From Octopus vulgaris (Eukaryota), in assembly GCA_951406725.2 (NCBI GenBank), contig OX597817.1:13578001-13642000 (forward strand): a DNA stretch of 64,000 bases, read 5' to 3'. Both the position numbers and the translations under genes were made by a program. Each line of letters begins with the position of its first letter. The first letter of the stretch is position 1. Of this stretch, positions 42,002 to 49,208 are shown one piece after another. A model generated the notes under the pieces. The model worked only from the letters and a program-made list of their open reading frames with translations. It did not search any database and was not told the DNA's origin.

Positions 42002-42025
42002 CTGAAAATTTAAAGAGGAGATATG

Positions 42026-42258
42026 TATTTCTTTATTACCCACAAGGGGCTAAACATAGAGGGGATAAACAAGGACAGACAAAGGTATTAAGTCGATTAC
42101 ATCAACCCCAGTGCGTAACTGGTACTTAATTTAATCGACCCTGAAAGGATGAAAGGCAAAGTCGACCTCGGCGGAATTTGAACTCAGAACGTAACGGCAG
42201 ACGAAATACGGCTACGCATTTCGCCCGGCGTGCTAACGATTCTGCCAGCTCGCCGCCT
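42026..42258 (-). mobile_element. SINE family B
   Basis: TSD TAAAGAGGAGATATG. Confidence 0.85.
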
Positions 42259-42908
42259 TGTAAAGAGGAGATATGAAGTATTAACACAACTTGAACGTGG
42301 CATAAAAAATAACAACAAATCAACTTTTAGATGAAGTCATTTGATTATTACAGGCAGCTACAGTTTCCACAAAGATTGAGGACTGGATTCAGATGTTCCA
42401 ATCGATTAGAAAGCAAAAGGGAATTACTGCTAATCAATCAATCAATCAATAAGAATCAAGAGAATCCAACAGGCCATACAATAATGAATGATATCAATAG
42501 AAAGAAAATATAATGAGCAGTCAATGGTTGGGTTTGTCTGAGTTTGAACCTTGCTGAAAATCAAAGCTTTTATAACTTTGTAGTTAGAGTGCATTTAATA
42601 CATTTAATAAACTATTTATGAGATCTTTTACACTGGGCCAGTCTAGACCAGTGTTTCTCAAACTATTTGATGGGGCGTACTGGCAGTTTTTTCCCCAATG
42701 TACCAGGAACCGGTAATATTTCTTAGTAATATTAATTTATACCAGAAACAATATATATAATGTAAACTATACTAGCCATCTCAATATGGCTAACCACAAA
42801 GGGTGGGTGTTACTGTAGCTTTTAGCCCCAGGAGATCATCGTCTCCAGCTGGCTTTAGACACACTTTCTGTGCCCTTATGGTATTTGCAAAGGGAGGTCA
42901 TCCCTCTC

Positions 42909-42990
42909 TCGTAAACCTAAGTGATACGCACGGACTGCAGTTTCGAGGTAATTTGCCTCTTGTCAACGTACGGTAATCACCGGTTTACGA
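42909..42990 (-). ncRNA. Type I hammerhead ribozyme, unit 1 (U3-A8 core variant; predicted cleavage 3' of the GUC at 42935-42933)
   Basis: minus strand reads UCGUAAACC-G-GUGAU-UAC-CGUACG-UUGACAA-GAGG-CAAAUUA-CCUC-GAAA-C-UGCA-GUC-CGUGCG-U-AUCAC-UUA-GGUUUACGA; stems I, II and minimal III all pair. Confidence 0.88.
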
Positions 42991-43263
42991 TGAAAGGAAG
43001 ACCTGTTTGCAAATACTTATGGGTTTTTCTAGTAACTTCCGTCATTGATTTCGAAAAACTGTCTGCAAGCAATAATAAATCTCTGAATGAGATGTAAACA
43101 GTAAGCGCTCGACAATGTAAAGTATACTCAGCCATCTCAATATGGCTAACCACTAAGGGTGGGTGTTACTGTAGCTTTTAGCCCCAGGAGATCATCGTCT
43201 CCAGCTGGCTTTAGACACACTTTCTGTGCCCTTATGGTATTTGCAAAGGAGGTCATCCCTCTC

Positions 43264-43345
43264 TCGTAAGCCTAAGTGATACGCACGGACTGCAGTTTCG
43301 AGGTAATTTGCCTCTTGTCAACGTACGGTAATCACCGGTTTACGA
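43264..43345 (-). ncRNA. Hammerhead ribozyme, unit 2
   Basis: same core as unit 1; GUC at 43290-43288. Confidence 0.86.
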
Positions 43346-43618
43346 TGAAAGGAAGACCTGTTTGCAAATACTTATGGGTTTTTCTAGTAACTTCCGTCAT
43401 TGATTTCGAAAAACTGTCTGCAAGCAATAATAAATCTCTGAATGAGATGTAAACAGTAAGCGCTCGACAATGTAAACTATACTAGCCATCTCAATATGGC
43501 TAACCACTAAGGGTGGGTGTTACTGTAGCTTTTAGCCCCAGGAGATCATCGTCTCCAGCTGGCTTTAGACACACTTTCTGTGCCCTTATGGTATTTGCAA
43601 AGGGAGGTCATCCCTCTC

Positions 43619-43699
43619 TCGTAAGCCTAAGTGATACGCACGGACTGCAGTTTCGAGGTATTTGCCTCTTGTCAACGTACGGTAATCACCGGTTTACGA
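43619..43699 (-). ncRNA. Hammerhead ribozyme, unit 3 (loop II 1 nt shorter)
   Basis: same core; GUC at 43645-43643. Confidence 0.84.
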
Positions 43700-43973
43700 T
43701 GAAAGGAAGACCTGTTTGCAAATACTTATGGGTTTTTCTAGTAACTTCCGTCACTGATTTCGAAAAACTGTCTGCAAGCAATAATAAATCTCTGAATGAG
43801 ATGTAAACAGTAAGCGCTCGACAATGTAAAGTATACTCAGCCATCTCAATATGGCTAACCACTAAGGGTGGGTGTTACTGTAGCTTTTAGCCCCAGGAGA
43901 TCATCGTCTCCAGCTGGCTTTAGACACACTTTCTGTGCCCTTATGGTATTTGCAAAGGGAGGTCATCCCTCTC

Positions 43974-45750: not shown

Positions 45751-45832
45751 TCGTAAGCCTAAGTGATACGCACGGACTGCAGTTTCGAGGTAATTTGCCT
45801 CTTGTCAACGTACGGTAATCACCGGTTTACGA
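45751..45832 (-). ncRNA. Hammerhead ribozyme, unit 9
   Basis: same core; GUC at 45777-45775. Confidence 0.86.
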
Positions 45833-46107
45833 TGAAAGGAAGACCTGTTTGCAAATACTTATGGGTTTTTCTAGTAACTTCCGTCATTGATTTCGAAAAA
45901 CTGTCTGCAAGCAATAATAAATCTCTGAATGAGATGTAAACAGTAACCGCTCGACAACGTAAAGTATACTCAGCCATCTCAATATGGCTTAACCACTAAG
46001 GGTGGGTGTTACTGTAGCTTTTAGCCCCAGGAGATCATCGTCTCCAGCTGGCTTTAGACACACTTTCTGTGCCCTTATGGTATTTGCAAAGGGAGGTCAT
46101 CCCTCTC

Positions 46108-46189
46108 TCGTAAGCCTAAGTGATACGCACGGACTGCAGTTTCGAGGTAATTTGCCTCTTGTCAACGTACGGTAATCACCGGTTTACGA
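46108..46189 (-). ncRNA. Hammerhead ribozyme, unit 10
   Basis: same core; GUC at 46134-46132. Confidence 0.86.
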
Positions 46190-46736
46190 TGAAAGGAAGA
46201 CCTGTTTGCAAATACTTATGGGTTTTTCTAGTAACTTCCGTCATTGATTTCGAAAAACTGTCTGCAAGCAATAATAAATCTCTGAATGAGATGTAAACAG
46301 TAACCGCTCGACAACGTAAAGTATACTCAGCCATCTCAATATGGCTTAACCACTAAGGGTGGGTGTTACTGTAGCTTTTTCATATATATAATGAATGTAA
46401 TAAAAGTTGACAATTTTTATCTTATATTTATTTTGTAAACAAATAATACAATATTACATAAGCATTTTATATTGTCTCTTTCTTTTTTGGAAACTCACTG
46501 CATACCAGCAGCTGATGACTCATGGACCGGCACCGACTCAGAGACCACCACTTTGAGTAGCACTGGTCTAGACAATAATAATTCTCCTGTTACCAGCATC
46601 TATACCCGCTATGTTTCAGAATTTACCAAAATGGCTAATTTAGATTTATTTCTCCATGATCACGAAAGGATTACAGTGCATTTAATATATTTAATAAACT
46701 ATTCATGAGATCTTTTATACTGGGCTTAGTCTAGAC

Positions 46737-46955
46737 CAGTGCTTTTCAAACTTTTTGCTGGAGCGGAACCCCAAGGAAACATTCCACTGGCTCGAGGAAC
46801 CCCTGTGCAATAATTTAATAGTCTTATGCACACATATCTGCACAGGAGAATTAAAAATTACTGTCGATTTTAGCAGTTTTGTAACTTCTTGTGGAACCCC
46901 TGGACTGTACTGGCGGAACCCTAAGGTTCCGCGGAACCCTGGTTGAAAACTACTG
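46737..46955. mobile_element. Second, different hAT (Charlie-like) MITE
   Basis: TIRs CAGTGCTTTTCAA / TTGAAAACTACTG; 8-bp TSD GTCTAGAC at 46729-46736 and 46956-46963; GGAACCC subterminal repeats. Confidence 0.85.
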
Positions 46956-47689
46956 GTCTAGACAATAATTATTCTATAGTTATCACCATCTATACCCACC
47001 ATGTTTAAGAATCTTCCAAAATGCCAGTTTAAACAACCTCTCTACAGTAATAAGAGTTAGAATTAACTTATTTAATGTAGCGGGTATCACAAATCTAAAC
47101 AATTTTGTTTGTTTTATGTCTGTTGTTTTCATGGGTTAGACAAATATGTTATTGAGACAGTGTTTTCACAATCAGATGCCCTTTCAAAGGAAAAGACAAC
47201 AACATTATTAATAAATATTATTTTAATCATTTAGGTAAGTACAGGAGGCAATATTCTGGACATGTTCCAATCTTATTAAACCTCCTCAGTAGAACACAGA
47301 GTTCAATGTATTTGCCAAAATAATTTTGAGAAAATCACTAAGCAAACATACTACACTGTACGTCAGTAGGCAAGAAATATTAACATACTGGCCTAGTGGT
47401 TAGGGTGTTGCGCTCATTCTCACTAGATGGTGAGTTTGATTCCCAGACCAAGTGGCTATTGTGTTCTTGAGCAAAATACTTCAATTCACATAGTTCCAGT
47501 TCACTCAGCTTTAACCCTGTGATGGACTGGCCTTCTAATCAAGAGGAAGTGTTGGCCTGCCTGCCTAGCCTGCAGAGTGGCATCATTCAAAAGCCAAAAT
47601 GATGCAAAGCACATTGTGACCAGTGATGCATAACAACACCTGGCAGTCTGGTCAAACACATGATCATGTGATACTTATCCTCATTATCG

Positions 47690-48480
47690 TCATTTAGCAT
47701 CGGTTTCCCATGGGTTGGATGGTTTGACTTGGACTGGTAAGCTGGAGAGCTGTACCAAGCTCCATGTCCGACTTAGCTTGGTTTCTATGACTGGATGCCC
47801 TTCCTAATGTCAACCACTCTAAGGGTGTAGTCAGCGCTTTTTATGCGTCACAGGCTCTGGCTATGACTATGATTTCACTTGGCTTGATCTGTCTTCTCAA
47901 GCACAGAAAAATCACCAAAGGTCTTGATCACTTGTCATTGTCTCTCTGAGACTACATTTGAAGATCATGCTTCACCACTTTGTCCTGTGTCTTCCTATAT
48001 CGAACTCTTCCGCAGGTTCCCTCCACAGTTTGAGATCAGCACTTTTTTACACAGATGTCCAAATCCATACGCATCACATGACCATACCAGCACAGCCTTC
48101 TCTTTTGCACATCACATCTAATACCTCTTATACCCAATTTTTCTCTCAAGACACTAACATTCAGTCATACATGCACACTGACATTGCACATCCAACAGAG
48201 CTTCATTTCTTTCAAGCCATCTCGTTTCACTGCCATGTAGCAAGGCTATTTGCGATCAGACATCATACAATCTGCCTTTCACTCCGAGGTAGAGGTCCTC
48301 TGTTACCAACAAAGGTAGAAGCTCTTTGAACTTTACCTGGCCTATTTTTATTCTAGCAGCTACACTCTTGGGGCATCCACCTCCACTGCCGACTTAGTCA
48401 CCCAGATAATGGAAGCTATCTACTACATCTAAGTATTCCCTCTGACATTTGACAAAATCTATTTTCTGTGCATTTCTAGT
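47690..48480 (-). mobile_element. Degenerate RTE-clade LINE 3' portion
   Basis: minus-strand YLGD..GGG..SVAARIKIG..KFKELLPLL..VKGRLY RT-downstream motif; tail matches SINE family C. Confidence 0.7.
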
Positions 48481-49208
48481 GTTCTGAGGTTAAATACTCA
48501 GACCCCATCCCCAACTCTACATCTACATAATAAAGAATAATTAAGTAAGTATTATCAGCATATCTAATGAAGTGAGCATGAAAAATCTATTTGGAAATAA
48601 CCATGTTGTGTAGCAAAGACAAAATATCAATTATATATCAGTAAACTGATATTGATTGGTATATCATATTTCATGTTGTCATGGAAACTATCCTTTGACC
48701 CATATTTAACTAAAAAAATGTCCATCTGGTGTCAATGATCTAAATAATATATTCTTATCATTCAATTAATCCAAATTGACAACTTTGTCAAAACAGCTTT
48801 CTGTTAGTATTAAATATTTACATTCCTTATATTAATAAATGGACTTCAAAATATTGATATCAAAGACAGCCACAAGGTCTCAGGTTTTGGTAGGAACAGT
48901 GACGGGGGTCTGATATAATCAATTATATCAATTCCAGTACTTAGTAAGTGTCAATTTTTACAATCCTACTAATGGATGAAAGGTGAAGTTGACCTAGGCA
49001 GGAAACAGGTTAGTTCAGAACGTAAAAGAGTACAACTTAATATGTCAAATAACTTTTTTTGATGCTCTGCTGGTTTTATTACCTTAACACTCCAATACAC
49101 TTCAAAATATTATTACAATACAAAAACTGGAGTGTGTGAACACAATGGAAACTTTAAAGCCGTTTCATTCTGCTAAAACACGAACAACTGGAATACTAAG
49201 TGACTAAC

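Follow-up and report, generated by a model that had tools for sequence, protein, structure and literature searches.

Ten predicted hammerhead ribozymes arranged in sense within a PHAF1 intron of Octopus vulgaris have the sequence features of a non-LTR retrozyme array

In Octopus vulgaris, an intron of the gene PHAF1 carries a tandem array of ten type I hammerhead ribozyme motifs in the sense orientation. The array lies in the 64,000-nucleotide stretch analysed here (contig OX597817.1, positions 13,578,001 to 13,642,000; hereafter the window, to which coordinates refer), and by every testable sequence-level feature it is a retrozyme of the kind without long terminal repeats (non-LTR). The best explanation, which could equally well prove right or wrong, is that a retrozyme inserted into a miniature inverted-repeat transposable element (MITE) and expanded to ten units, whose paired ribozymes would shed 355-nt monomers with little loss of PHAF1 mRNA.

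Repeat detection delimits 10.2 retrozyme units of 354–357 nt on the minus strand at 42759..46379 (period 355, 99% matches). All ten full units hold a type I hammerhead by both descriptor and fold, and a strict descriptor run over the whole window returned ten motifs on the minus strand and none on the plus strand; 50 first-order Markov control sequences averaged 0.0. The first motif occupies 46126..46171 (minus), with its predicted cut after 46132, and the tenth and last 42927..42972 (minus), with its cut site at 42933; the C17 residues that mark the predicted cut sites fall at 46132, 45775, 45420, 45063, 44708, 44353, 43998, 43643, 43288 and 42933. The motif comprises a 6-bp helix I (CGUACG/CGUGCG), a 4-bp helix II (GAGG/CCUC), GAAA, GUC at the cut site and a 2-bp helix III closed by the palindromic 4-nt loop UGCA. 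Its core is the U3-A8 variant (UUGACAA...GAAA...UC), not C3-G8, and all ten cores are intact together with the ACUGCAGU palindrome. These helix lengths and the palindromic loop III match the canonical metazoan type I hammerhead, described with a helix I of 6 bp, a helix II of 4 bp and a helix III of 1–2 bp plus palindromic loop (PMC4209133; here and below, statements from cited sources refer to the available portions of each). The array fits the canonical core through a 3-8 pair that is the U-A covariant of C-G, and the U3-A8 core has been described as a natural covariant active in vitro (PMC3088659).

Non-LTR retrozymes are recognized as tandem repeats of about 150–450 nt with a GC content below 45–50% and a target duplication longer than 4 bp. 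The array presents a 355-nt non-coding tandem repeat (longest ATG frame 30 amino acids in sense, 35 in antisense) of GC 0.43 with one hammerhead per unit, a 10–12-bp target duplication and dispersed copies elsewhere in the genome. In the array unit, we found no RNA polymerase III (Pol III) A or B box, no sense polyadenylation hexamer and no strong cryptic splice signal. The element shares with the metazoan non-LTR retrozymes of PMC7229834, among them a 350–390-nt Mytilus repeat, its unit size, low GC, non-coding tandem organization, single type I hammerhead per unit, long target duplication and strongly self-paired monomer. It differs from them in its U3-A8 core and in its examined copies, which mostly span 1–1.5 units with inversions, long arrays being rare.

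The array sits between two consecutive parts of the PHAF1 coding sequence, a gene that we take to act in autophagy from its Pfam name and literature listing. The exon upstream of the array (49209..49288, minus) matches positions 80–104 of PF03676 and the one downstream (41922..42001, minus) positions 106–130; both have AG/GT ends, and these ends and the reading frame define a phase-1 GT-AG intron at 42002..49208 (minus). Four PHAF1 exons tested, the two flanking the array and two upstream, join in one frame of 97 amino acids without a stop, and all eight PF03676 matches in the genome fall in a single minus-strand locus. One upstream exon of only 44 nt (49713..49756, minus), in frame with its neighbours and without a separate Pfam match of its own, is placed by spliced joints in two sequencing runs. 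These joints, 49288/49713 and 49756/50744, show minus-strand transcription upstream of the array; they occur in two of the four runs compared, whose records do not label them as RNA, and the comparison covered 46023–51000, that is, one unit, the upstream intron and three exons.

The original prediction, that PHAF1 and the hammerheads share the minus strand with the array in this intron, thus agrees with both the exon matches and the descriptor. Its claim of ten potential cut sites per pre-mRNA is likewise borne out as geometry by the ten sense motifs. The first cut site lies 3,077 nt past the splice donor and the last 931 nt ahead of the acceptor, and the ribozyme-bearing stretch makes up only half of the 7.2-kb intron. 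The further idea that host read-through alone could release up to nine monomers per transcript is plausible on the same geometric grounds, and the predicted double-hammerhead fold strengthens it.

In a single unit, helices I and II fold with near certainty and helix III has a probability of at most 0.001 at 15–37 °C. Two adjacent units, in contrast, adopt a double hammerhead as their unconstrained minimum free energy structure, at −164.6 kcal/mol against −147.5 kcal/mol for two monomer folds, a difference of 17 kcal/mol. Helix III of this dimer is 8 bp long, built from two ACUGCAGU palindromes, and forms with a mean probability of 0.93 in 9 of 9 neighbour pairs. Because helix III is predicted between neighbours and not in a lone unit, the array is the predicted cleavage-competent form, and lone dispersed copies are predicted to be mostly mute. 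Dimer-dependent cutting has been described for canonical metazoan motifs (PMC4209133), and a dimer mode for axolotl retrozymes (PMC7229834). The axolotl elements HHR_Amex1/2 have the same weak helix III, palindromic tetraloop and predicted dimer cutting in tandem transcripts (PMC7229834), but belong to another phylum, differ in sequence and number about 126,000 motifs, compared with a single intronic array here. The monomer that would run from cut to cut folds with z = −4.4 and has both ends paired, as would be expected of a ligation substrate.

The array interrupts a minus-strand MITE at 42649..46565, which would be about 300 nt long without it and is bounded by short inverted ends and an 8-bp GTCTAGAC duplication; from these hallmarks we take it to be of hAT type. 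Its family has 919 candidates in the genome, the best others 84–89% alike. Directly flanking the array are an upstream (46382..46393, minus) and a downstream (42751..42762, minus) copy of a TA-rich 10–12-bp sequence, the latter overlapping the 3′ end of the element by a few bases of microhomology. Since this TA site is single in empty copies of the MITE, and most of 14 other copies run through it uninterrupted, the flanking repeat is the target-site duplication of the insertion. The array terminates at the first 3′ end of the retrozyme family. In two other MITE copies (L083 and L090), insertions of about 350 nt occupy this TA site, which looks like an insertion hot spot; their first letters, compared at the start only, are unlike the unit.

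Variation within the array points to growth in place. Only nine columns vary among the ten units, which fall into three interleaved types (A A B A B B B C B C), as stepwise homogenization would be expected to leave them. The letters at unit positions 33, 52, 93, 136 and 266 mark the array, and several of them are private or nearly so: none of 37 matched dispersed ends has the extra A at position 33, and among those pieces of the closest copies that cover the site, A93 appears in 4 of 62 and A136 in 1 of 47. At positions 136 and 266, units 8 and 10 have retained the letter typical of the family, in contrast to the other nine. From the few, mosaic variable columns and the array-private letters, we infer a short insertion that then expanded and homogenized in place. 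Together with a best outside match of 97% identity, the same rare or absent letters argue against descent of the sampled copies from the array.

Two further features lie near the insertion. A second MITE at 46737–46955 is likewise flanked by GTCTAGAC, and contigs from runs X18 and X19 omit exactly 46729–46955, which covers this MITE and a single duplication; the lineage of the window has therefore acquired it recently or is polymorphic for it. The intron also contains a local duplication (47023–46671 and 46633–42584, 85–88% alike), with a different MITE in each copy of the GTCTAGAC site.

A point absent from the original prediction is that the array belongs to a mobile family with more than 1,300 copies. 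A search with the 3′ half of the ribozyme, allowing up to two mismatches, gave 1,369 genomic matches, and its reversed control gave none; we took the copy number, at least 1,369, from these rather than from 3,215 candidates, a figure likely inflated by a separate 390-nt repeat. Exact cores number 193. We examined 59 loci, comprising the 39 most similar and 20 chosen by a 7-nt-loop pattern. The dispersed copies examined are 5′-truncated partial tandems, mostly no longer than 1–1.5 units; 24 of the 59 loci include an inverted piece, and many copies lie within (TA)n or have flanking duplications. Their 84 outer 3′ ends cluster at unit positions 60–68 (40 of 84) and 108–119 (29 of 84), and no preferred 5′ start was found among the 20 loci chosen by ribozyme pattern. 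Among the 175 of 193 exact-core copies that were placed, the PHAF1 array is the only run of more than two units. At least five dimers occur elsewhere, four on the same strand among the exact-core copies placed and one more among 100 listed places of the 1,369 matches; other copies of the 1,369, most of which have no assigned place, may include further arrays.

Nine of the dispersed motifs have C3, all with G8 and eight also altered at U4, and likely reflect one event. A subfamily of seven loci (L029, L030, L032, L033, L040, L042 and L043) has the C3-G8 core, in most cases with U4 changed to C and the basal pair of helix II mismatched, and activity of these retrozymes is doubtful.

The separate 390-nt repeat is represented in the window at 29447–29841 (minus) and 33427–33822 (plus) and has 5,070 genomic candidates that are 95–96% alike. 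It has TC...CTAG ends and a 3′ hairpin, by which hallmarks we take it to be Helitron-like. It includes a 64-nt piece of the retrozyme unit that ends at the retrozyme family's first 3′ end, so the repeat has probably taken up a retrozyme insertion and propagated this piece, minus the ribozyme. Inverted 64-nt fragments at 29513–29572 and 33697–33756 were considered as ends of a full Penelope element and rejected, because the longest open reading frame between them is 133 amino acids and they belong to the two 390-nt-repeat copies.

The footprints of the dispersed family match those of Penelope-like elements: its copies are partial tandems truncated on the 5′ side, some with 5′ inversions, and they show two alternative 3′ ends and targets rich in TA. 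Partial tandems, 5′ inversions and an optional tail are described as Penelope-like hallmarks (PMC8557442), the tail being the stretch between two start sites of reverse transcription (PMC11167929), and animal retrozymes have been argued to be non-autonomous Penelope derivatives (bioRxiv 10.64898/2026.07.22.740005). The octopus family shares with non-autonomous Penelope-like elements and derivatives of their pseudo-long terminal repeats the 5′ truncation, partial tandems, 5′ inverted piece, optional tail, AT-rich targets and a hammerhead in the repeat. It differs in a tail of about 46 nt, where theirs measure 30–40 nt, and in a canonical ribozyme architecture in place of a minimal one.

The genome does contain Penelope-type GIY-YIG frames, many of them open over 781 amino acids. 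Many such 781-amino-acid frames belong to one family (L056, L061 and relatives, for example at G000:C16:20838796). Several loci of this family (L057, L059, L060, L063, L068 and L074) have minimal hammerhead-like motifs, again with a U3-A8 core, suggesting that the U3-A8 variant is common in this genome.

In the mechanism we favour, a non-LTR retrozyme copy, mobilized by a Penelope-like reverse transcriptase/endonuclease, would have inserted into the MITE in the PHAF1 intron and expanded locally to ten units by unequal exchange. Neighbouring ribozymes, predicted to pair as an active double hammerhead, would let PHAF1 transcription release 355-nt monomers, for the most part at a late stage or from the intron once spliced out, and a tRNA ligase would circularize them. 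The host would tolerate the array because cutting must await the next unit and a strand exchange, and thus competes with splicing.

Several observations weigh against this mechanism. The contigs of the sequencing runs cannot show RNA ends, and no cleavage or circle was observed. The spliced joints listed lie upstream of the array intron, and the organisms sequenced, which diverge from the window by about 2%, may not have the array. No Rfam hammerhead match was obtained at gathering score or at E ≤ 5 on 43400–44200, and matches to snoZ194 and mir-616 (E 1.6–4.5) were dismissed as chance. None of 30 GIY-YIG loci, out of 6,136 candidates in the genome and with 1.5 kb of flank on each side, resembles the unit as an autonomous partner would. 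On monomers and circles the read data are neutral. Contigs of the family occur in two spliced runs and cannot separate circles from partial tandems. At 46287, 933.6 of 933.6 depth in run X1 and 849.5 of 865.9 in run X6 have the letter of the family, which says little about the alleles because those organisms may lack the array. A 357-nt go-back joint was rejected as evidence of circles, since dispersed partial tandems account for it. Unit RNA/DNA depth is low, and equally low for other repeats of the stretch, giving no signal.

In a rival account the array would be an inert passenger, a retrozyme-derived minisatellite whose ribozymes barely cut in vivo and whose intron is spliced and degraded normally; we regard this as doubtful but as having a real minority chance. 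The core is the non-standard U3-A8 variant, and loop II has 7 nt in 9 of 10 array units; of the 53 dispersed motifs examined, 40 have a loop II of 6 nt, and the longer loop may weaken a tertiary contact. The long local helix I rod, with a probability of about 1 in a single unit, forms first and could trap an inactive fold. In Xenopus, eight of nine retrozyme dimers were left uncut in vitro (bioRxiv 10.64898/2026.07.22.740005), a result that, like the 7-nt loop II, also counts against the mechanism we favour. RNA-seq gave no reads that stop where a Penelope ribozyme cuts, according to the available part of PMC11167929. Against an inert array, cutting at about 0.1/min and abundant circles are described for a similarly sized retrozyme from mussels (PMC7229834). 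All cores and palindromes of the array are moreover intact, compared with 37 intact cores among the 53 dispersed motifs, and the dimer fold is the global minimum.

The opposite outcome, that the ribozymes cut much of the nascent PHAF1 RNA while the downstream exon has yet to be defined, so that splicing fails and output falls with array length as an unselected side effect, strikes us as unlikely. The summed exposure amounts to about 24,000 site-nucleotides. A rough kinetic model with assumed rates estimates how many transcripts are cut one or more times by the time the next exon is complete; with elongation at 2 kb/min, this share is 11% at k = 0.01/min, 30–70% at k = 0.03–0.1/min and 70% at 0.1/min. 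The last value also counts against the mechanism we favour, as a small effect on PHAF1 then requires slow cutting in vivo or exon tethering. Tethering, which Dye and colleagues reportedly described in 2006, would permit splicing across a cut intron. The array has moreover grown and homogenized within a single-copy conserved gene, which argues that its cost is small. In favour of attenuation, splicing and protein fall with fast intronic ribozymes and are spared by slow ones (Fong 2009, cited in PMC10919898), CPEB3 rises when its intronic ribozyme is blocked (PMC10919898) and retrozymes are under-represented in Xenopus genes (bioRxiv 10.64898/2026.07.22.740005). We also find it improbable that repeat number acts as a dial, with single intronic copies harmless because helix III needs a partner, expansion turning cutting on, and the array both making monomers or circles and setting PHAF1 dosage.

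Least credible, with only a slight chance, are Xrn2-type termination, a switch co-opted by the host or a master source locus for the family: the array is the sole placed exact-core run beyond two units, lies in sense in a transcribed gene and has a unit with no detected Pol III box, but it sits within a MITE and shows no sign of being conserved, at least five dimers occur elsewhere, and the 97% best outside match and array-private letters (A93, A136) led us to reject it as the parent of the closest copies. Termination through Xrn2, as originally proposed, is unlikely because ribozyme cuts leave a 5′-OH; Eaton et al. (PMC6938672) used the undegradable downstream cleavage product as a stable read-through reporter. 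Were PHAF1 output lowered, failed splicing and 3′-end decay of the upstream piece would be the likelier route.

Self-cleaving motifs within introns have precedents. The HDV-like ribozyme of CPEB3 is intronic and affects its host gene (PMC10919898), and the hammerheads of RECK and C10orf118 are intronic and conserved (PMC10761166). All resemble the array in placing a self-cleaving motif in sense in an intron, in potential kinetic competition with splicing, but they are single and conserved, whereas the array is ten-copy, MITE-nested and drawn from a mobile family. Intronic retrozymes as such are commonplace: in two Xenopus species, 44% and 42% of copies overlap introns, below expectation (bioRxiv 10.64898/2026.07.22.740005).

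No octopus retrozyme family was found in the literature searched, as judged by titles and abstract openings and with subscription papers and supplements outside its scope, and the words 'ribozyme' and 'retrozyme' are absent from the available portion of a 2026 octopus repeat annotation (PMC13282606). The present family thus adds retrozymes to an animal group without one described in the papers searched, and its unusually clean Penelope-type footprints bear on the question of what mobilizes retrozymes. If cutting is negligible, the array would be an ordinary intronic repeat. Its private letters make array RNA traceable, and the locus offers a natural experiment on whether host read-through alone can make retrozyme RNAs and whether dimer-dependent hammerheads may cost a gene only after tandem expansion.

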